Sequence record: OR911938.1
From: Escherichia phage vB_EcoS_SD276
DNA: 45,453 bases
Reading direction: 5' to 3' (one strand)
The notes below the pieces were generated by a model. That model was not told the origin of the DNA. It made no database searches and worked only from the letters and a program-made list of their open reading frames with translations. This document shows, one piece after another, positions 5,081 through 40,877 of the stretch; within the stretch, counting starts at the first letter, position 1, and each line of letters starts with the position of its first letter. Both the position numbers and the translations under genes were made by a program.

Positions 5081-5845
5081 TTAGCGCGGAATGCCGCAAA
5101 TCTCGTTGAGTGTTTTCACATCCAGCGCCACCGCCGTGGATTTTGGCTTGTCCGGGTATGGGATGAATTGCTCAACTTCAGGCCATGCCTTAATCAGCTT
5201 CTTGTCAGTGTTGTGCAGGTCCAGCACACCGGTAACGGTGAGTTTGAACGCATCATACTTCGCGCGCAACTCGCGACGGGCCTTGTCGTTGCGGTCCAGG
5301 CGCTTACAGAAGTCATGGTCCGCCGGGTAATCAACGCGACCGCGTGGGAGATATATCGGCAGCGCTTTCCCATCCTCGTCCACTTCGCACACTGACGCGA
5401 GCATAACTGTCTCGAACCCCGGAACGATATCGCCGAGATCAGGCGCGAGCTTATTCATATATTTCTCTTCCCAGTATCCGCGATGTACGCGGTATTGGCG
5501 ACCGTCACCGCTCAAGGACAAGGTGCGAACATTTCCGCCTGCGTTGATTTCGAAAGTGGCGTCGTAAACGCTGCCGATACCTTTCGGGCGGTCGGTGTTA
5601 TAACTATACGTCGCCTTGTTGGTGTATACGCTGACGCCGTACATCTGCGACTGGTCATCGCGGATTGACAGGATATGCTCGCGTAGCGAGGCGAATGTGC
5701 GAATGCCGTCCGGCATACAGTCCAGCGTGATTGCGTACGCCAGGTCGCGAGAGTCCATCATGATTGTTTTGGCTACGGTAGCGATTTCGTGGTCGCGCAG
5801 GATGTTAGCCAGGATCTGATTTTTAATGTCTTTTGTCAGTCTCAT
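5081..5845 (-). CDS. hypothetical protein (254 aa), antisense cassette gene 2
   Basis: Long ORF on opposite strand to flanking late genes, RBS GAGGACACAAAA-ATG, ends at bidirectional terminator 5057-5079. Confidence 0.6.
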   Translation of the reverse strand: MRLTKDIKNQILANILRDHEIATVAKTIMMDSRDLAYAITLDCMPDGIRTFASLREHILSIRDDQSQMYGVSVYTNKATYSYNTDRPKGIGSVYDATFEINAGGNVRTLSLSGDGRQYRVHRGYWEEKYMNKLAPDLGDIVPGFETVMLASVCEVDEDGKALPIYLPRGRVDYPADHDFCKRLDRNDKARRELRAKYDAFKLTVTGVLDLHNTDKKLIKAWPEVEQFIPYPDKPKSTAVALDVKTLNEICGIPR

Positions 5846-6199: not shown

Positions 6200-6234
6200 T
6201 TTGTCTTCCTTCATATCTCTGTTGGTGTGCAACC

Positions 6235-6264
6235 AATATACCGCAACCAACATTCGCAATGCAA
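6235..6264 (-). promoter_or_regulatory. sigma70-like promoter for antisense cassette (TTGCAT-N18-TATATT)
   Basis: Hexamers read on minus strand; followed by GGTTGCACACCAAC and RBS. Confidence 0.5.
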
Positions 6265-11077: not shown

Positions 11078-11107
11078 TTTGGTCGCTTAAATAGCGGGTG
11101 ATAATAT

Positions 11108-11131
11108 GGGGCCAGTACGGCCCCTTTTTTT
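11108..11131 (+). terminator. intrinsic terminator after major tail gene
   Basis: GGGGCC-AGTAC-GGCCCC followed by TTTTTTT. Confidence 0.7.
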
Positions 11132-11147
11132 ATTGGAGAATACGACA

Positions 11148-11510
11148 ATGGCTAAAGCACCACTCTTTACACTCGACCCTAAGCCGACTTTTAAGCTGCC
11201 GATTGAAATCCCGCGCCCCGGCGAAAACGAACCGGGCAAAATGACGTTTACCGTGCGCCACCGCCCTATAGACGAATTTTCGCAGACCATGCAGGATACG
11301 GAGCGCAAGTTGTCGGAATATGACGACAATGATCCTGACGGCTTTAACGTTATGGTCGAGGCCATCATGCACGTCGCAGAAGGCTGGAATCTGCCGGACG
11401 AATTTAACGCGGAGAACGTCCGCCGCCTGGTGGTCAACTATCCGCGCGCGTTCGGCGTGTTCCACACTTCGTACTATCTCGAACTGATGGGATTGCGTGA
11501 AAAAAACTAA
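11148..11510 (+). CDS. tail assembly chaperone (G-like)
   Basis: Small acidic protein upstream of tape measure, ends LREKN* on slippery A_AAA_AAC; track start 11106 lies in terminator hairpin. Confidence 0.65.
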   Translation: MAKAPLFTLDPKPTFKLPIEIPRPGENEPGKMTFTVRHRPIDEFSQTMQDTERKLSEYDDNDPDGFNVMVEAIMHVAEGWNLPDEFNAENVRRLVVNYPRAFGVFHTSYYLELMGLREKN

Positions 11511-11828: not shown

Positions 11829-12142
11829 GCGGGACAAGCGGGACGTCCCGCTTGTCCCGCACCTCTAAAAACTGCATATTTACCCGCCAACATTGCATAA
11901 ATTAAAAGCGGGACAGGGTGCTGTCCCGATCTGTCCCGCCCACAAAATGTGAATATCTATTCAGTTTTCGTGCATAAAACAAACGGGACAAAAAGCGGGA
12001 CAGAATGGGGTGGGACAGATCGGGACAGCACCCTGTCCCCGCCAGTGCTGCCGCGGGTTTTAGCCGATCGGGACAGGCGGGACAAAGCCCAGTCTTTCAG
12101 ACTAGACGGGGGTCATTGGCCCCCCTCGTCTGAGACTGAATA
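11829..12142. repeat. GGGACA-rich non-coding element, copy A (32-bp perfect palindrome + repeat array + 53-bp hairpin module)
   Basis: At least 12 GGGACA/TGTCCC hexamers; palindrome GCGGGACAAGCGGGAC|GTCCCGCTTGTCCCGC at 11829-11860; module 12090-12142 identical to 40286-40338. Confidence 0.7.
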
Positions 12143-12206
12143 AGGTTTGTTTTAAATTCGCTGATACAATTAACGACGGCAACTGCATAAAAAGGGGGAC
12201 TGCATA

Positions 12207-14849
12207 ATGGCAGATCAGGCAGCGGGCATCACGCTAAAGGCGGACGTCGCGCAAATTAAAACGGCTAATACTGTGCTGGACACATTTGCGCAGAAATCCG
12301 AGAACACAGAACAGAAAGTAAAGAAATTAAACGACACCCTCGGCAAGTCGAAAAAGGTTACTGGCGACGCCGCGGGCGGAATGGAAAAGTTAGCGACTGA
12401 ATCGCAGCGTGCCGCCGATGGCATGACGAAACAGGAGCGACTCGCCAGCCGATTAGGCATGTCGACCAAAAACCTGGGATTCGCATCGCGGAACGCCGCA
12501 TTCCAGTTACAGGATATTGCGGTGACGCTTGAGATGGGTATGCCGGTGCACCGCGTTATGCTTCAGCAGTTACCGCAGCTTACTGGGGCGTTTGGCGGAC
12601 TGGGTAACACGCTGCGATATGTTGCGGGCTTTCTCGGCCCAGTGGGGATCGGCCTTTCGGCATTAACGGCGACGTTAGGCGTAGGGGTGGCAATTACGAC
12701 CCGCGCAGAGAACCAAGTGGCGGCGCTTAATAAGACGCTGGCGCTGTCCGGTAATATTTCAGGCCTCACAGCTAACCAGATCCTTGTGCTGTCCGAGAAC
12801 GCCGAGCGCATGGGCGGGTCATTTCGCAAGACGCGTGACACAATCCAGGCGCTGGCGGCGGCGGGGGTGAAAGCGGGTGGTGACTTCGGCGCATTGGCTA
12901 AGGTAGTTAATGACTTTGCGAAGGTGTCCAGCCAGCCGATCGAGGATGTGGTAGCGGCGGTAGCGAAGCTGTCAACCGACCCCGTTGGCGGACTGCGTGC
13001 GCTGGCGGATAAGTATCACGTCGTAAACGAAGCGCAGATCCAGCAGGTACAGTCGCTCGTTGATGCGGGTCGTGAGACAGACGCAGTTGCGTTGGCTAAC
13101 AAAACAGCCGCTGCGTCGTTCACCAGCATGACCAATGAGATCAAGGCGAACATGGGTACGCTTGAGCGATCTATGAACGTCGTCACATCGGCAGCCAAAT
13201 CAATGTGGGACGCCATCCTGGATGTGGGCCGCGCGCAGTCCTCCAATGAGTCCGAGATGAAAGCGCGCGAATCACTACAGCGCATGACCACGGCTTACTA
13301 TGCCGAGATGAAAGCGGTAAACGCTGCCGGTGGGGTAATGACTGAAGCGCAGAAAGCACGTATTAACATGCTTTACAGCGAACTGGTCGCCCAGGAAAAG
13401 GTAGTGGCGTCGCTCACCCTGCGTAACCGTGCCGAGCGAGACAACGCCCGCGCCGCAGACGAATCCGCAAAGGCGAACGAGGAGGCCAACCGCACCGCCC
13501 GCGACCGTGCCGCGTTTGAAAAGGAGTACGCAACTAACGCTAAGAAGCGCGCCGACGAGATCGCCCGCCTCAATTTGCTGAATAAGCGCGGCGTTATTGA
13601 TGAGAAAGAGCTTGCCGAGGCGGTGAAGCAGGTAAACGAGCGTTACAAAGACCCCGCACCGAAGAAGGCCGCCGCGGTACGAGTCGATGCCGGTATGAAA
13701 ATGCTGGAAGTCGCACGGAGCGAACTGGCCCAGCTTCGAGAATCCAGCAAGCAGATCGAAGCCAACGCATCTACGCAGACCCGCACGCAACGCGCTCAAG
13801 CGGCCTTAAACAAGCTGATCGCCGACAATGAGCAGTTAATCGCTGCGAGCAAAGAAAGAGCGCTAACGGCAGCAGAAAAGCAGCAGATGGTCGAATTCGG
13901 ACGCGTGAAGGAAGTGCGCGAGCAGATCGTCGAAGAAGCCAAATTGCTGGACGCGAAAGAGAAGCAGGTTAAGGCGCACGCGCAGATCGAGGCCTTCGTT
14001 AAGAACCAGAACGCCGAACTAAAAGCCACAGCCGCTGGCTATGCGCTTTCCACTCGCGAAGCGGCAAACCTGCGCGAAGAATTGCAGCTAATCGATCGTC
14101 TGAAGCGGGTTGGCGCTAACGATACCGATATTGGCAAGGCGGTGTCTAAGCTGCGGGAAGTGCAGGAGGCGCAGACCGGCGCTAACGCCTCGCTATGGGA
14201 TGGATTCAGTCGCGGGCTTAAGGATAGCGTGGATGAAATGGGTAACGGATATACGCAGATGGCGTCGCTCACGAAATTCACATTCAGCGCTATGCAAGAC
14301 ACGATGAACGAGTTTTTCGAGACTGGCAAGCTGAACGCAAAGGATATGGTTAAATCCATCCTAAGCGAGTTAATCAAGCTGGCTACCTCGCAGGCGTTCA
14401 AGTCGATCGTTAGCGCTTTCGGTGGTGACGGCGGCAAAAACGGATTGTTCGGCGCTATCTTCTCCGGCCTCACTAAGAATGCGGACGGCGGAGCGTACGC
14501 AGGAGGCAATCTCGCGGCCTATTCCGGTCAGGTAGTAAGCCAGCCCACCTTTTTCAGTTATGGCGTCCAGGCGTTCGCTAAGGGCGCAGGATTGATGGGT
14601 GAGGCTGGCCCCGAGGCCATCATGCCTCTGAAGCGCGGGCCGGACGGGAAACTGGGCGTTGCCGCTTCTGGCGCAGGCGGGGGTATGATCGTGACGACTA
14701 ACGTTTACACTGGGACCGGTAAAACAGACACCAGTGTGAGCGGCCCAGACCCACGCACCGCGCAGGCGTTCGGCAAGCAAATCACCGAGGCGGTGAAGGC
14801 CGAGATCGTGAAAGCGACGAAACCGGGTGGTGTACTTTACAAACGATGA
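12207..14849 (+). CDS. tail tape measure protein
   Basis: 880 aa, long Ala/Gln/Lys/Glu-rich helical protein with hydrophobic glycine-rich segments, downstream of G/GT. Confidence 0.85.
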   Translation: MADQAAGITLKADVAQIKTANTVLDTFAQKSENTEQKVKKLNDTLGKSKKVTGDAAGGMEKLATESQRAADGMTKQERLASRLGMSTKNLGFASRNAAFQLQDIAVTLEMGMPVHRVMLQQLPQLTGAFGGLGNTLRYVAGFLGPVGIGLSALTATLGVGVAITTRAENQVAALNKTLALSGNISGLTANQILVLSENAERMGGSFRKTRDTIQALAAAGVKAGGDFGALAKVVNDFAKVSSQPIEDVVAAVAKLSTDPVGGLRALADKYHVVNEAQIQQVQSLVDAGRETDAVALANKTAAASFTSMTNEIKANMGTLERSMNVVTSAAKSMWDAILDVGRAQSSNESEMKARESLQRMTTAYYAEMKAVNAAGGVMTEAQKARINMLYSELVAQEKVVASLTLRNRAERDNARAADESAKANEEANRTARDRAAFEKEYATNAKKRADEIARLNLLNKRGVIDEKELAEAVKQVNERYKDPAPKKAAAVRVDAGMKMLEVARSELAQLRESSKQIEANASTQTRTQRAQAALNKLIADNEQLIAASKERALTAAEKQQMVEFGRVKEVREQIVEEAKLLDAKEKQVKAHAQIEAFVKNQNAELKATAAGYALSTREAANLREELQLIDRLKRVGANDTDIGKAVSKLREVQEAQTGANASLWDGFSRGLKDSVDEMGNGYTQMASLTKFTFSAMQDTMNEFFETGKLNAKDMVKSILSELIKLATSQAFKSIVSAFGGDGGKNGLFGAIFSGLTKNADGGAYAGGNLAAYSGQVVSQPTFFSYGVQAFAKGAGLMGEAGPEAIMPLKRGPDGKLGVAASGAGGGMIVTTNVYTGTGKTDTSVSGPDPRTAQAFGKQITEAVKAEIVKATKPGGVLYKR

Positions 14850-22340: not shown

Positions 22341-22360
22341 CCAATTAAGAGGATTTAGCT

Positions 22361-26033: not shown

Positions 26034-26063
26034 ACTATAGTGCAACCAACCTATTGGTTGCAA
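26034..26063 (-). promoter_or_regulatory. sigma70-like promoter (TTGCAA-N18-TATAGT)
   Basis: Hexamers on minus strand, GGTTGC boxes in spacer, followed by leader hairpin. Confidence 0.5.
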
Positions 26064-27705: not shown

Positions 27706-27734
27706 AATATAATGCAACCAATATGATTATGCAA
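27706..27734 (-). promoter_or_regulatory. sigma70-like promoter (TTGCAT-N17-TATATT)
   Basis: Hexamers on minus strand, TTGGTTGCAT repeated twice. Confidence 0.55.
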
Positions 27735-27739
27735 CCAAT

Positions 27740-30646: not shown

Positions 30647-30675
30647 ACTATACCGCTATGCGACCAATTCAGCAA
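30647..30675 (-). promoter_or_regulatory. sigma70-like promoter (TTGCTG-N17-TATAGT)
   Basis: Hexamers on minus strand upstream of zinc-ribbon gene. Confidence 0.45.
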
Positions 30676-30934
30676 CCAATAAATCACAGTCGGCAATGTT
30701 GTCTATAACGCGAACGTCAGCGCCGCGGCGGGCCATCCGCTCGTGTTCTCGTACCTGGTGCGGCTTAGGTTTGCCGCCTGGGCGCTTCACTTCGACGAAC
30801 ACTATTTTGCCGTTGATGATGATAATCAGATCGGGCGCACCCGAGCGCCCCTCCCATGCCACTTTGCGGCAGAATCCGCCGACGGCTTTCACCCGTCCCA
30901 TCAAGTGACTTTGAATCTTGCCTTCTGGTGTCAT
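30656..30934 (-). CDS. VRR-NUC domain nuclease
   Basis: Motif PDLIIIINGKIVFVEVKRPGGKPKPHQ (D...E-V-K...Q) typical of VRR-NUC; overlaps polymerase stop. Confidence 0.55.
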   Translation of the reverse strand: MTPEGKIQSHLMGRVKAVGGFCRKVAWEGRSGAPDLIIIINGKIVFVEVKRPGGKPKPHQVREHERMARRGADVRVIDNIADCDLLVAELVA

Positions 30935-34229: not shown

Positions 34230-34294
34230 TTTCCAATTCCTCATTTTCACATGTATCGGGGTTATTGTGAGCCACCCCGTTCGGCTTGGTTGCT

Positions 34295-34323
34295 AATCTA
34301 CTTGGTTGCGCCTAAGCGGTCAA
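34295..34323 (-). promoter_or_regulatory. sigma70-like promoter (TTGACC-N17-TAGATT)
   Basis: Hexamers on minus strand upstream of SSB-like gene, GCAACCAAG boxes. Confidence 0.5.
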
Positions 34324-36473: not shown

Positions 36474-37013
36474 TTAGTCTTCCAGTTCGAAATAAGTTTC
36501 GACGATTTCTTTTAGCTCGGTGTGGAAGTCTTCGACGTCGTCATCTTCCAGCTTGGCGATTGATTTGATCTCGAACGATTCCAGCAGGTCGTCAAATTCG
36601 TCGTTCGCATCGTCATCATCACCGCCCGCGATAATCGCGGCATACTGTTTGATCTCGTCGCGCATCTCTGCCAGCGGATCGGCATCTTTCTTACCTTTGC
36701 CTTTCGCTGGTGCTTTTTTACCCTTCGCCGGTTTTTCGTCTTCGGCTTCATCCTCGTCGTCATCCTCTACGACTTCTTTTTTGGCCTTACCTTTAGACTT
36801 GGTTTCTTTTGCCGCGCCTTTTTTCGCTTTGGGCGTATCTTCGACTTCGTCCTGATCGTCGTCTTCGACTTCGTTCTCCGGCTTGGCCTTGCCTTTCTTA
36901 GCGGTGCCGTTTGTTTTTGGGTCTACGGCAGCGCCAACGGTTTCATAATGCTTAGCGATGATTTCCAGTGCTACTACGCCGCGAGTGATCAGGTTTACGA
37001 TTTGCTCAAACAT
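36474..37013 (-). CDS. highly charged low-complexity early protein (179 aa)
   Basis: First gene of leftward operon; RBS GGAGATATACC-ATG; alternating Lys-rich and Asp/Glu-rich blocks. Confidence 0.5.
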   Translation of the reverse strand: MFEQIVNLITRGVVALEIIAKHYETVGAAVDPKTNGTAKKGKAKPENEVEDDDQDEVEDTPKAKKGAAKETKSKGKAKKEVVEDDDEDEAEDEKPAKGKKAPAKGKGKKDADPLAEMRDEIKQYAAIIAGGDDDDANDEFDDLLESFEIKSIAKLEDDDVEDFHTELKEIVETYFELED

Positions 37014-37208
37014 GGTATATCTCCGATTGGTTAAGTTTAGGTGTCGACCATTAACTTCGTCGGTGGCCTTAACATAGTGCCCGGTTGCGCGTTCTCCCTT
37101 TCGGGTAGTGGACCGGGTTATATAATCACGGTTGGGAATCCTGACACTTCGATCCGGCCCCTGCGTTGCCCCTCTCCAGTTTGCTTCCTGCATCCTGTCG
37201 ACGAGGTG

Positions 37209-37237
37209 AATATTAGATTGGTTGCAGAAGGGAGTCA
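37209..37237 (-). promoter_or_regulatory. leftward early promoter (TTGACT-N17-TAATAT)
   Basis: Hexamers on minus strand in the divergent control region, GCAACCAATC box in spacer. Confidence 0.55.
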
Positions 37238-37352
37238 ACAACTAATTTAAAAAAAAGCGCCGAAGCAAAATGCGACGGCGCTAACCAATAAGAGACAATG
37301 AGACGGGAATTATTATTACACGCGTGCGCGCCCGTTTCAATATCCAAAGGAT

Positions 37353-37381
37353 TTGACACCGTGCAGTTTTGGGTGTAGTTT
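37353..37381 (+). promoter_or_regulatory. rightward early promoter (TTGACA-N17-TAGTTT)
   Basis: Hexamers on plus strand ~30 nt upstream of HTH gene RBS. Confidence 0.5.
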
Positions 37382-37412
37382 CGTTGGTCATTAGCCAACA
37401 GGAGACTGAATT

Positions 37413-37742
37413 ATGAATATCAAAGAAGCAATTGAAGTGTTATCTAATGCAATCCGCGGCGAAGCGGGTAAATCCTGGTATTACACAAATGCGGTGGATA
37501 CTCTGTTATTTGAAGTGTCCAGATTATCGCGTGCTGAGAAGGAGCTTACCGCGAAGCTGGAATTACTCAACGGCACGGCAGCAAGCAAGCTGCAAAAGCA
37601 CAATGAAGAAATGGAAGAATACAAAAAACAGGTTATCCGTTTGCGCGCCGAGGGCAAATCCTGGGCAATGATCGCTGAGTTGACAGGAATTAATCAGAGC
37701 ACCGTGCGCTCCTGGGTACGCAATAATAAAACTTCGAAGTAA
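37413..37742 (+). CDS. HTH DNA-binding protein, putative transcriptional regulator
   Basis: C-terminal helix-turn-helix-like segment GKSWAMIAELTGINQSTVRSWVRN; first gene after rightward promoter. Confidence 0.5.
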   Translation: MNIKEAIEVLSNAIRGEAGKSWYYTNAVDTLLFEVSRLSRAEKELTAKLELLNGTAASKLQKHNEEMEEYKKQVIRLRAEGKSWAMIAELTGINQSTVRSWVRNNKTSK

Positions 37743-37752
37743 GGCAACGGCA

Positions 37753-40017
37753 ATGAGCTTAATTAAATTCGCGGTAACACGACCCGCTAAAAAAGGCGAA
37801 AAAGCCAGGGCGGAAAACTTCCAGATGACCACCGATGAATTTTTCGAATTTATCAATGACGCGAAAGAAATCTCCTCGGTGCATATCAACAAGACGGAAG
37901 ATAAAGCCGAGTATGCGCGCCGCAAGCGTAAGGCCGATGGCATCGTGGCATATACCAGTGACGGCTTACGCCGCAAGACCAGTGCGGTGGACCGCTCGAT
38001 CCTGTTCTTCGATATTGACCGTACCGACACCCGCACCCTACGCCGCTGCCGTAAGGCTTTCATCGACGCGGGGCTGGAGCATGTATTCCACACAACCACC
38101 GGCGACCGCCACCCACTGAAAGGCGGAACGCGTTGCGCTCGCTTCCTGGTACTCACTGACAAGCCTGTCCCGGCTGAAGACCTGGGCCGTGTCCAGTATG
38201 CGCTATTACACCAACTTGGTCTGTCAGATGTGGACTTCGACGATTGTACGAAGGACACAAACCGTCTTATGTACCTGCCTCACCAGCAGTCTGTCATTAA
38301 GTGCCACCACGGCAAGCGCGCCAATGTGCGGCGTCTGCTCCGCCTGGCGGACAAGCTGGGGGTGGAGAAAGAGGAAGTACGCCGCGAGCTTACCCAGGGC
38401 GACGACGCAGTGGCGGACGGTATTCTGGACTGGTGCTTCCAGGCAGGATTCGAGGAGTTATCTTCCGGTCGCGGTTATGAAGTTCCGTGCCCGAACGAGC
38501 ATCTGCACAGCGGCGAAGGGTCGACGGCTATCATGGTTAAGGATGGCGAGATCCGTTTCAAATGTATGCACACCGGCAACGAGTGTTGCTCGGAGCTAAA
38601 TAGACACCAGCACCTTGCGCTACGTCTTATCGGGATACCGGACCACCTGAACGTCGAGCCGCACAACATGTCCCGTAAGCAAATCGCCGCCATCCTCCCA
38701 GGGCTGGACGACGAGGAAGTCGAATCCTTATATGAACATATTGTTGATGCGGTTGGCGACGGCGAAGAATACGGCGTGTGCACCGATGCGGATCTGGATA
38801 ACGAGCCGGTTGCGCTGTTCAGTAAGCACGACCCGATCATCGAGGGGTTGATTAACTTTAAATCGACCTGGTATATGGCGGGTGAGTCGAATATCGGCAA
38901 GTCCTTCTACGTGCTGGGGCAGATGGGCGCGGTTGCCGCGGGGATCCCGTTTGGTGGTGCGAAGGTAGTCCAGTCGCATTGCTTCTATTTTGATGCGGAA
39001 GGCGGCGAAGCCTCCAACCAGCGCAAAGAAGCATTGCAGATTAAATATGAGCACGACCTGGACAAGCTGCACATTATAGACCTGCAATCCCGCGGCTGGG
39101 ATATCACCAGCAAGTCCGGTTTGCGCGAAGTTATCAGCTTTATCAACCGCACTGCTAACGGCGAACCGGTTGGCCTGGTGGCGTTCGACTCACTCAACCA
39201 GACTGTTGCGCTGCGGTCCGCCGATGCTAAACCGTTTGACGAGAACAACGCCAGCGATATGGGTGAAGTGGTCAAAGCGCTGAAAGCCATTGCGGAAAAT
39301 ACAGGTGGCAGTGCGGGCGTCATCCACCACCCGGCGAAGGGTGCAAACGGCAGCAGATCTCCCCGTGGGTCCGGCGCACTGCATGGCGCTGTCGATTCTG
39401 CGTTCTTCCTGGAACAGCCGGACGACAACCAGCCGGGACAACTTAACCTGTACCACGAAAAATCACGTAACGGCATCAAGCAAGCGCCGCGTGGCTTCGT
39501 CCTGCTCAAGTGCAAGGTGGAGGTGGATCTCCGCAAGTCAGAAGCGTTCGCGTCGCACCAGTCCACCAGCACCGGGCCGGACTTCGGAGACGTCGTTGCC
39601 GGTTGGGACGTCAAACCAATTGCGTCCACCCCGCGCGATGAGACTCTATACCTCGTACCGGTCGCCCTGGAACCGTTCGCTATAGAACAGGCGAAGGCGG
39701 CGGGCAAAGCCGCAGTTAAGGAAGAAAACGCCGCCGGTCCGCGCAACGAAAAAGAGAAAGTGCTTTATGCGGCCCTGGAAAAACTGATGGAAGATAACCC
39801 GAACCATACCGGCTTCAGTAAATCGGCAATTGTCCGCCAGGCTGGACTCGCGAAGGGTGGTACTTCGACGAAGGCAATCGACGATATGGTCGAGCGCGGC
39901 GTGATTGGTTTCTATTCAGATCCGCACACCGGGGCCATCTATGGGTCGTCGAATTTAGTCATCAAATCGGATATCCCCATAACGCTTTCGGCGACCGATG
40001 ATGACCTGAACGATTAA
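37753..40017 (+). CDS. primase-polymerase (AEP-like) / helicase-ATPase fusion protein
   Basis: N-terminal DxD motif ILFFDIDRTD, central Cys/His zinc-binding region, C-terminal RecA-like ATPase with Walker A GESNIGKS and Walker B LVAFDSLNQ. Confidence 0.7.
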   Translation: MSLIKFAVTRPAKKGEKARAENFQMTTDEFFEFINDAKEISSVHINKTEDKAEYARRKRKADGIVAYTSDGLRRKTSAVDRSILFFDIDRTDTRTLRRCRKAFIDAGLEHVFHTTTGDRHPLKGGTRCARFLVLTDKPVPAEDLGRVQYALLHQLGLSDVDFDDCTKDTNRLMYLPHQQSVIKCHHGKRANVRRLLRLADKLGVEKEEVRRELTQGDDAVADGILDWCFQAGFEELSSGRGYEVPCPNEHLHSGEGSTAIMVKDGEIRFKCMHTGNECCSELNRHQHLALRLIGIPDHLNVEPHNMSRKQIAAILPGLDDEEVESLYEHIVDAVGDGEEYGVCTDADLDNEPVALFSKHDPIIEGLINFKSTWYMAGESNIGKSFYVLGQMGAVAAGIPFGGAKVVQSHCFYFDAEGGEASNQRKEALQIKYEHDLDKLHIIDLQSRGWDITSKSGLREVISFINRTANGEPVGLVAFDSLNQTVALRSADAKPFDENNASDMGEVVKALKAIAENTGGSAGVIHHPAKGANGSRSPRGSGALHGAVDSAFFLEQPDDNQPGQLNLYHEKSRNGIKQAPRGFVLLKCKVEVDLRKSEAFASHQSTSTGPDFGDVVAGWDVKPIASTPRDETLYLVPVALEPFAIEQAKAAGKAAVKEENAAGPRNEKEKVLYAALEKLMEDNPNHTGFSKSAIVRQAGLAKGGTSTKAIDDMVERGVIGFYSDPHTGAIYGSSNLVIKSDIPITLSATDDDLND

Positions 40018-40127
40018 AATTTGCGCGCATTGGTTGCCGATATGGGAATTCCCATATCGCTAAAAGACTAAAATTTGCGCGCATTGGTTGCCATTTTGAG
40101 TGTTTTTAGCTGGTCGCATTGGTTGCC
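40016..40127. repeat. GCATTGGTTGCC iteron-like direct repeats (3 copies) with inverted copy at 40398-40409
   Basis: AAAATTTGCGCGCATTGGTTGCC at 40016-40038 and 40070-40092, GCATTGGTTGCC at 40116-40127; flanks 20-bp perfect palindrome GATATGGGAATTCCCATATC (40039-40058). Confidence 0.6.
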
Positions 40128-40153
40128 GTGTAGTGTAAATATAATGAATAGTT

Positions 40154-40338
40154 ATGCAGTTTTATTGCATAAAGTAAGCGGGACAAAAAGAGGGACAGAC
40201 CAGGGGCGGGACAAAGCGGGACAGCACCCCCGTCCCGCCCCGGATGACGCGGCCTGGCGGGGAGCGGGACAGGCGGGACAAACCCCAGTCTTTCAGACTA
40301 GACGGGGGTCATTGGCCCCCCTCGTCTGAGACTGAATA
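40154..40338. repeat. GGGACA-rich non-coding element, copy B
   Basis: TTGCATAAA-N-GCGGGACA array ending in the same 53-bp module as copy A (identical by eye). Confidence 0.7.
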
Positions 40339-40493
40339 AAATCCGGGATTGCAAAATACACGGCAGCACATTGGAAATCGCGGTCGTCGACGAACTAGGC
40401 AACCAATGCGAGATGCGGAATGGTGGGTGGAAAATGCAGTTTGCATTTGCAACGGATAGCGATCGACTTTTTCATACGCGTGATTAATATTGG

Positions 40494-40522
40494 TTGCATT
40501 CGTGCCCGCACCCTGCTAGATT
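40494..40522 (+). promoter_or_regulatory. sigma70-like promoter (TTGCAT-N17-TAGATT)
   Basis: Followed by GGTTGCACACCAAC, the same motif that follows the -10 of promoter 6235-6264. Confidence 0.5.
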
Positions 40523-40550
40523 GGTTGCACACCAACATGAGGACCGAACA

Positions 40551-40877
40551 ATGAAAGCGATTATCTGGAATTACGCAATGGCGATGGCGAAGGCACAAGA
40601 AGCGGCGGAGTTCGCCGGTGAGGGGGCGGAAGCAGTAGAAAGACTATCGGCCGCGTGGGCTGTTGTGCGGGTAACGCAGCAGGCCATCGCCGTTATGCTT
40701 GAGCGCCGCTTCGACACGATGGATGAGATCCAGCCACTGGCGAACGCCATCCAGGACTACGCGCTAGCATTCTCCCGCGAGCGCCTGGCATATCGCTTCG
40801 GGATCGGTGAGACGGCAGCGACAAACATCGCCAGGATTAAAGCCCAGCGCGAACTATTCGCCCAGCTTGCGAAATAA
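40551..40877 (+). CDS. hypothetical protein (108 aa)
   Basis: ORF with promoter 40494-40522 and RBS GAGGA upstream. Confidence 0.45.
   Translation: MKAIIWNYAMAMAKAQEAAEFAGEGAEAVERLSAAWAVVRVTQQAIAVMLERRFDTMDEIQPLANAIQDYALAFSRERLAYRFGIGETAATNIARIKAQRELFAQLAK

Follow-up and report, generated by a model that had tools for sequence, protein, structure and literature searches.

The 533 bp between the helicase-primase gene of Escherichia phage vB_EcoS_SD276 (OR911938.1) and the next gene downstream contain an origin-like, cis-acting element. Judged from its anatomy, the core of this element (about 40128-40370) is, with a probability of roughly 0.55, an origin of replication served by the phage's own helicase-primase, or at the least a cis-acting site essential for replication by that protein. 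The window, which is the whole stretch analysed (45,453 nucleotides), is a complete genome of a Dhillonvirus, an HK578-like coliphage siphophage, and the gap extends from the TAA of the helicase-primase gene (40015-40017) to the ATG at 40551. The origin-like reading is favoured because this layout recurs after the homologous gene in distant lineages and after a stand-alone AAA_25 helicase gene in an unrelated phage. A preliminary description of this DNA, which put the gap at about 530 bp, had also proposed an origin here. An origin-like element beside the helicase-primase gene is indeed present, but the repeats flagged there as iterons, built on the motif GCATTGGTTGCC, belong to a promoter-linked family found throughout the genome, and the GGGACA hexamers, treated as a side feature, are the better iteron candidates.

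BLAST searches with positions 39900-40700 matched 158 phage records, of which 138 span 80% or more of the query; identities are mostly 80-95%, and Escherichia or Shigella phages of the genus Dhillonvirus make up nearly all of the records. Fifteen Dhillonviruses were aligned for footprinting, and conservation is given below as invariant columns of that alignment; dinucleotide shuffles of the genome served as the control for chance. The element following the helicase-primase gene is referred to as copy B, and a paralogue at 11.8-12.2 kb as copy A.

Copy B begins with an AT-rich segment (40128-40179) made up of two tandem boxes, TGAATAGTTATGCA at 40145-40158, with 13 of 14 columns invariant, and TGCATAAAGTAAGC at 40166-40179, with 11 of 14. 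The AT-rich stretch mentioned in the preliminary description corresponds to 40128-40177, where the GC fraction of 0.24 is the lowest of all 45,403 50-mers in the window. The segment is a candidate DNA-unwinding element or conserved binding site. It is followed on the plus strand by a GGGAC(A) array (40180-40279) with direct copies at 40180, 40192, 40208 and 40218, an inverted copy at 40232-40236 and further direct copies at 40266 and 40275; the second GGGACA element reported earlier consists of six direct and one inverted copies, and its paralogue lies at about 11945-12145. The GGGAC pentamers are invariant in 29 of 35 columns, compared with 30 of 65 for the spacers between them. The GGGACA clusters are the strongest hexamer clusters of the genome, with 12 copies in copy A and 6 in copy B against a shuffle maximum of 4 per 300 bp.

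Downstream of the array lies a 49-nt hairpin (40286-40334), which can be folded as one long or three hairpins and which, as DNA (-13.4 kcal/mol), beats the shuffles on either strand (z -3.6 to -4.5). Its arms are invariant in 40 of 42 columns and its loop in 0 of 7, and it is a candidate priming signal on unwound DNA. The last part is a plus-strand ACACGGCAGCA box (40358-40368; 8 of 11 columns invariant), which is present in all lineages and holds the most over-represented 8-mer of the genome, ACGGCAGC. The near-invariance of boxes, hexamers and hairpin arms, with free variation in spacers and loop, fits a series of binding sites. All repeats lie 3' of the stop codon. Small open reading frames in the gap (40075-40329, 40420-40554 and those annotated in phages PS2 and HK578) were rejected as genes and taken as non-coding, their frames being broken by single-base indels among close relatives, and tRNA scans returned nothing relevant. 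Two other places considered were also rejected: the divergent promoter region at 37013-37412, as an alternative origin, is without repeat arrays, and an apparent CATACG cluster at 24.85 kb proved to be scattered and inside coding sequence.

To look beyond the genus, distant loci were fetched with the helicase-primase protein, and contigs encoding homologues were added. In lineages whose helicase-primase is 37-68% identical, the stop codon is followed at once by the same series of parts: AT box, three to four direct hexamers, one to two inverted hexamers, spacer, two direct hexamers, hairpin and ACGGCAGC. The element is directly 3' of the gene in the Dhillonviruses, in the loci L149, L158, L024, L025, L028, L150 and L151, in Enterobacter phage phiEap-2 (Guernseyvirinae) and, after a stand-alone helicase gene, in L089. 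The AT box and ACGGCAGC are common to the lineages; the array repeat differs between most of them, being GGGACA in the window, L016, L149 and L158, CGGACA in phiEap-2, CCGACA in L024, GGGATA in L025, GGGGAT in L028, GGGGATC in L150 and TCGCAA in L151. The TGAATAGTTATGCA 14-mer is kept in the 37-68% identical lineages and in L089, and is inverted in L158. A scan of viral contigs for the exact 14-mer gave 120 loci, most of them chance matches; a helicase gene lay directly upstream in 6.

The farthest comparison is L089, an unrelated 55-kb phage. Its stand-alone AAA_25 helicase (Pfam AAA_25, 1.9e-36; 24% identical, E 5e-12) ends inside the TGAATAGTTATGCA box, beyond which lie YGGACA repeats (five direct, three inverted) and then a gene whose match to the DnaG zinc ribbon is weak and below threshold. 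This arrangement indicates that the element goes with the helicase gene and not with late genes.

The hairpin occupies the equivalent position in eight lineages with a different sequence in each (z -3.1 to -5.1), and three of the five pairs of its first stem show compensatory changes. Together with the presence of both copies on the transcribed strand, these features are what a structured RNA would predict, be it a put- or nut-like antitermination element, an RNA primer precursor or a small regulatory RNA, with two copies in the Dhillonviruses. Such an explanation is nevertheless improbable. At gathering scores no Rfam 15 family matched the window; in 39950-40600, which covers copy B, there was no match even at E<=1, and copy A matched only generic hairpin (miRNA) models, below threshold and on both strands. 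No conserved promoter precedes the element and no terminator follows it, as DNA, either strand of the stems folds as well as the other, and short hexamers in both orientations are typical of protein sites rather than of RNA helices. In addition, the AT box is inverted in L158 with the other parts unflipped, and the TTGGTTGC sites, which carry the 8-nt core of GCATTGGTTGCC, are inverted in L149; both inversions fit sites acting at the level of DNA, not RNA.

The protein presumed to act at the element is encoded immediately upstream (37753-40017, plus strand; 754 aa). It comprises an N-terminal primase of the archaeo-eukaryotic primase (AEP)/PrimPol type, a Cys/His-rich putative zinc-binding segment, a RepA-like AAA_25 helicase, a C-terminal winged helix and an acidic tail. 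Pfam identifies AAA_25 only, and PHROGs assigns the protein as a replicative helicase-primase. The primase fold is that of a RepB'-like AEP, with matches that include RepB' alone and RepB' with ssiA DNA, and the only sequence match of the helicase part in the PDB, a weak one, is RepA of RSF1010. The winged helix is a domain of the double-stranded DNA-binding type besides the helicase core. In the acidic tail, TDDDLND (residues 748-754; 39994-40014), the D and L residues are invariant across 32 homologues; the tail resembles the acidic C-terminal tails of T7 gp4 and gp2.5 that contact polymerase. The helicase-primase has the parts of a self-loading initiator.

The mechanism proposed for the element draws on this anatomy and on precedents from Staphylococcus aureus pathogenicity islands (SaPI) and staphylococcal cassette chromosome mec (SCCmec) (PMC7581432), phage P4 and IncQ plasmids. 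An initiator would bind the GGGACA hexamers, four direct, one inverted and two direct; the leading candidate is the helicase-primase itself, through its C-terminal winged helix, and the alternative is the small helix-turn-helix (HTH) protein encoded upstream. Binding would be followed by melting of the adjacent conserved AT-rich boxes, and the RepA-like hexameric helicase would load itself on the opened DNA. The exposed strand could then fold into the hairpin, which together with ACGGCAGC would form the start signal for the fused AEP primase, in the manner of the use of ssiA and ssiB by RepB' of RSF1010, and the primer would be extended by the Pol I-type polymerase of the phage.

Several observations weigh against an origin. 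The skew analysis suggested in the preliminary description lent it no support: the turning points of the cumulative GC skew, 24.8 kb and about 37 kb, are where gene orientation switches, with none at 40.2 kb, and as the AT skew also tracks gene orientation only, both are uninformative for this position. The spacer between the two iteron sets is GC-rich, unlike the SaPI origins. Copy B precedes a large operon and is on the transcribed strand, and copy A is inside the tail operon, so that a transcriptional or RNA role is possible. Loci L019-L023 and L026 have no iteron array within 3 kb, where only a terminator-like hairpin or other genes were found. The predicted recognition helices of the winged helix are near-identical in lineages with different hexamers (RRRPAIQSL in L158, with GGGACA; KRRPAIQSL in L150, with GGGGATC), and GGGACA recurs in a lineage that is 46% identical; a search for a code linking recognition helix to hexamer yielded nothing consistent across lineages. 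Finally, L027 has only GCAACCAAC repeats, and a TTGGTTGC-type motif might be the origin repeat in some lineages. At the L027 locus (5260-5700) no hexamer array follows the helicase-primase gene; about 300 bp there hold seven copies of GCAACCAAC/GTTGGTTGC, a 23-nt inverted repeat has its arms about 200 nt apart, and the C-terminal domain of its helicase-primase is unlike the others.

The second element, copy A (11829-12183, plus strand), lies in a 380-bp non-coding gap of the tail operon, with the tail-chaperone frameshift product on one side and the tape-measure gene on the other. A paralogous stretch of about 200 bp (about 11945-12145) is 84% identical overall to copy B, and its last 77 nt are nearly identical. 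Copy A contains 15 GGGAC pentamers, an identical hairpin (12090-12138) and ACGGCAAC at 12176. At its start is a 32-bp perfect GGGAC palindrome with the halves GCGGGACAAGCGGGAC and GTCCCGCTTGTCCCGC (11829-11860), which folds as a DNA hairpin of -20.9 kcal/mol (z -7.3); the annotators of HK578 labelled this a rho-independent terminator. A 24-nt inverted repeat (11914-11937 and 12012-12035) flanks its AT box. All seven full Dhillonvirus genomes examined have copy A, with signs of gene conversion between the two copies; no equivalent was found in phiEap-2. Comparison with other phages suggests that copy A may be a second origin or a partner site. Upstream of it, a seven-A run (GTGAAAAAAACTAA; 11495-11510) ends the open reading frame of the tail assembly chaperone (11106-11510), and an open frame continues to about 11825; the run looks like the usual -1 frameshift site that gives the G/GT pair.

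A duplicated element 28 kb away, with traces of gene conversion and, around 270 nt of copy B, a 14-nt perfect inverted repeat (TCGCATTGGTTGCC and GGCAACCAATGCGA), could also be a small mobile or selfish repeat resembling a miniature inverted-repeat transposable element that has been inserted twice. This is very improbable, as copy A does not have those inverted repeats, the supposed ends are the genome-wide promoter motif, and both copies occupy the same sites in 7 of 7 genomes, with a diverged version at the same position in distant lineages. Neither empty sites with target-site duplications nor extra copies at new sites were seen, and searches of plasmids and E. coli genomes found no copies of the element.

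The 8-mer of the last box is also found far from both copies. ACGGCAGC occurs on the plus strand at, for example, 1506, 2329, 3835, 13866, 22946, 40360 and 45287. The form ACGGCA[GA]C is present 36 times on the plus strand and 15 times on the minus strand, with a handful expected by chance; it appears in all three reading frames about once per kilobase, and from 40.2 kb through the end of the sequence and position 1 to 24.8 kb the ratio of plus to minus copies is 28:6. It is also the top or a near-top 8-mer in HK578, LM40P1, phiEap-2 (19 on the plus strand, 9 on the minus), L150, L151 and L025, and each origin-like hairpin has one copy alongside. The 8-mer could be a priming, recombination or nicking signal.

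A wider scheme can be drawn up for the enterobacterial siphophages concerned (Dhillonvirus, Guernseyvirinae and unclassified relatives), although it is quite unlikely. The helicase-primase of the group would be initiator, helicase and primase in one polypeptide and would recognise DNA in two ways, by lineage-specific hexamers at a modular origin and by a universal priming 8-mer, ACGGCA(G/A)C; found once next to each origin hairpin, and scattered at about one per kilobase and mainly on one strand, the 8-mer would serve as a lagging-strand priming signal, and the Dhillonviruses would have two origins, the second embedded in the tail operon.

The repeats emphasised in the preliminary description, three direct and one inverted, are present at 40026, 40080, 40115 and 40398. 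The direct 13-mer CGCATTGGTTGCC occupies 40026-40038, 40080-40092 and 40115-40127 on the plus strand, its first two copies being part of a 54-bp tandem duplication in which a 33-nt repeat occupies 40006-40038 and 40060-40092, and the inverted copy lies at 40398-40410 on the minus strand. The inverted copy and that at 40114-40127 form the 14-nt perfect inverted repeat that brackets the element. Two more core copies, ATTGGTTGCA at 40489-40498 and 40520-40529, had been overlooked, being outside the stretch described. The palindrome reported as 20 bp and perfect is perfect and measures 22 bp (CGATATGGGAATTCCCATATCG; 40038-40059; hairpin of -8.2 kcal/mol, z -3.7); it lies inside the tandem duplication. 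Absence of the repeats from close relatives had been named as evidence against an origin, and the first 54-bp unit, which holds copy 1 of the 13-mer together with the palindrome, occurs in just 6 of the 15 Dhillonviruses, which counts against these parts. Phage EP23 has a single direct 13-mer. Among the direct copies, only the third (40115) is kept in 15 of 15 relatives; it and the inverted copy each have 12 of 13 columns invariant, and by this comparison the palindrome is dispensable in relatives.

The core TTGGTTGC is present in 19 copies in the genome, compared with 1.9 +/- 1.4 in the shuffles, and six copies fall in one 550-bp window, where the shuffle maximum is 2. For this family and for the GGGACA hexamers alike, the shuffles rule out chance. 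Eighteen of the 19 copies, on both strands, are located between genes or at gene boundaries. Their position relative to sigma-70-like promoter hexamers, which were assigned by manual reading of the sequence, is recurrent. The layout TTGCAT-N9-TTGGTTGC-N2-TATAnT recurs at 6250, 26049 and 27721, and a second layout, TAGATTGGTTGCA, is also repeated; the motif provides a TTGCAx -35 with a 16-17-nt spacer at 22344, 27738, 30679 and 40490, the -10 and +1 positions are overlapped by TAnATTGGTTGCA at 6236, 37218 and 40521, and inverted copies lie within promoter spacers at 34286/34302 and 43874. LM40P1, the most divergent Dhillonvirus, has AAATTGGTTGCA-N8-TTGGTTGCAnTATATT at three loci. On account of this placement, TTGGTTGC is read from the sequence as a promoter-linked operator or promoter element and not as an origin-specific iteron. 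The 13-mer form with CGCA...C flanks is found only in the region around the origin-like element.

Sites of the form TTGGTTGC(A) were seen at 6229-6250, 22337, 26042-26061, 27714-27738, 30660-30679, 34286-34309, 37218 and 43867; nearly every candidate early or middle promoter on either strand bears the motif, usually as pairs 12-17 bp apart. Related motifs in distant lineages are GTTGGCTG, GTTGGCAGC and GTTGGCCGC. A strict consensus scan for promoters and terminators called no promoter, either at 40489-40529 or at the TTGGTTGC layouts, and for this reason promoter activity at these sites is stated here as an inference; it made terminator-like calls only on the minus strand, one within copy A (11909-11928) and one within the gene downstream of the gap (40603-40617).

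The promoter at 40489-40529 is plus-stranded and sigma-70-like, with TTGCAT as -35 (40494-40499), a 17-nt spacer and TAGATT as -10 (40517-40522), and would serve the downstream operon. It is overlapped by the two ATTGGTTGCA sites, which are invariant in 18 of 20 positions compared with 3 of 17 in the spacer. The GCATTGGTTGCC/TTGGTTGCA sites are putative operators of a phage transcription regulator that acts on most early and middle promoters. In the mechanism proposed, they would flank the origin on both sides and overlie the promoter of the downstream lysis-packaging-structural block, and the TTGGTTGC sites would tie the element to the transcription programme.

A gene for a 109-aa protein whose HTH is like region 4 of sigma-70, by which sigma recognises -35 elements, adjoins the helicase-primase gene on its upstream side (37413-37742, plus strand; Pfam HTH_23 3e-7, Sigma70_r4_2 7e-7). 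The protein is a candidate for binding TTGGTTGC, or possibly the iterons. Divergence in HK578 fails to rule it out, as the HTH motif itself is kept there, though the whole protein is 45% identical. In L150 and L151 the HTH gene is of a different type (HTH_3).

With a promoter covered by TTGGTTGCA sites at its end, the region might be a pure transcription control region, in which GGGACA would be the sites of a lineage-specific activator or anti-terminator loader for the downstream block and, from copy A, for the tape-measure gene and the distal tail genes; the hairpin would act in RNA as an attenuator or stabiliser, and a second regulator would use TTGGTTGC as its operator. The region has the position of lambda pR', before the lysis genes, which are followed by cos, terminase, head and tail. 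Copy A is just upstream of the tape-measure gene in the same orientation, TTGGTTGC is promoter-associated genome-wide, and comparable intergenic repeat families in T1-like relatives have been interpreted as regulatory (PMC11447400). A purely transcriptional role is unlikely. The element adjoins the helicase gene in every case; in L089, box and GGACA repeats are between the helicase gene and the weak primase-like zinc-ribbon gene, not before late genes, and phiEap-2 has no copy before its tail genes. The hexamer clusters are confined to one or two loci instead of several promoters, and a T-run follows neither hairpin.

Like the 21-nt repeats of the T1-like phages (TLS/T1) and phage operator or 'stoperator' motifs, TTGGTTGC is short and occupies many intergenic sites upstream of genes. 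It differs from the T1-like repeats in sequence, in overlapping a sigma-70-like -35, spacer or +1, and in having a special 13-mer subclass around the origin-like element only.

The gene map of the window was read off collinearity with PS2. Terminase, portal, head and tail genes run on the plus strand from 56 to about 24.8 kb; replication and recombination genes, including those for Pol I, a gp2.5-like single-stranded DNA-binding protein, an SNF2 helicase and a nuclease, lie on the minus strand (24.8-37.2 kb); and the plus strand resumes at 37413 with the small HTH gene, the helicase-primase gene, small open reading frames, holins, endolysin and phosphoesterase. The E. coli Chi sequence GCTGGTGG occurs eight times on the plus strand and once on the minus strand of the whole genome. 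In L158, tandem 15-nt repeats (GGGGCTGACTTGTCC and GGGGCCAACTTGTCC; 12650-12945) make up the gene that follows the element, suggesting a pentapeptide-repeat-like protein.

Some records place their ends in the gap. That of phage WFI (MK373791) is cut between 40449 and 40450, and those of Pandora71, SP1 and BMA1 end within a few bases of this point, as would be expected if the region held a physical genome end or a packaging signal. This is hardly credible: most records are cut elsewhere, the WFI paper gives no terminus determination for that phage, and the cuts at 40449/40450 are probably a copied convention. For Dhillonvirus EE09, PhageTerm reported a cos with the 10-nt 5' overhang ATCTTAAGGG (PMC10673088), and a cos-like sequence is found at positions 8-17 of the window, just upstream of the small terminase gene.

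The literature searched yielded neither a mapped nor a predicted origin of replication for Dhillonviruses, Guernseyvirinae or their T1-like cousins, nor anything specific on origins or iterons of Dhillonvirus, HK578 or Jerseyvirus, and a recent T1-like genome paper found no iterons in its phage (PMC11447400). An iteron origin served by a self-loading helicase is of a well-known kind, for which the searches found no description in these phages. If the origin reading is true, a modular origin with swappable hexamers, used by a fused AEP primase/RepA helicase/winged-helix protein, would make a compact model for asking how a phage helicase that loads itself picks its origin. It would also aid the annotation of hundreds of coliphage and Salmonella phage genomes in therapy collections, and would give phage engineering a region to preserve or to use for phage-dependent plasmid replication. 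The modular design shared across lineages and the genome-wide 8-mer add somewhat to the interest of the element. As side leads, the analysis offers a promoter-operator motif with a candidate sigma-region-4-like regulator, and the strand-biased 8-mer.

The proposed origin has precedents. The P4 alpha protein is a primase-helicase with a C-terminal winged-helix domain that binds the origin. Two separated copies of the initiator-binding repeats per genome are known in P4 (ori and crr) and in Bacillus phage SPP1 (G38P; oriL and oriR), and one of the SPP1 copies lies in the late-gene region. With IncQ plasmid RSF1010 the phage shares a RepA-type helicase and a RepB'-type AEP primase. In the phage, however, the two are fused in one protein, the iterons are hexamers instead of 20-mers, each element has one hairpin complex instead of the ssiA/ssiB pair on opposite strands, and no RepC-like gene was seen in the neighbourhood of the helicase-primase gene. 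Origins of the lambda type have their iterons inside the initiator gene, whereas the phage repeats are all outside the helicase-primase coding sequence. The closest layout is that of the SaPI and SCCmec origins, which lie directly 3' of the rep helicase gene and have short iterons bound by the C-terminal domain of the helicase (PMC7581432). In SaPI pri-rep/ori and SCCmec Cch2, as here, the repeats sit right behind the helicase gene, as short iterons of 5-6 nt that vary from lineage to lineage (PMC7581432), and a helicase with a C-terminal domain of the DNA-binding type is accompanied by a fused or adjacent AEP primase. The phage protein differs from the D5-type helicase of SaPI in being RepA/DnaB-like (AAA_25, superfamily 4), and the phage iterons, whose binding is putative, differ from those of SaPI in being accompanied by a conserved AT box, a hairpin and an 8-mer box. 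The element is best read as a probable origin of the iteron type next to a self-loading helicase, like those of SaPI, P4 and IncQ replicons.

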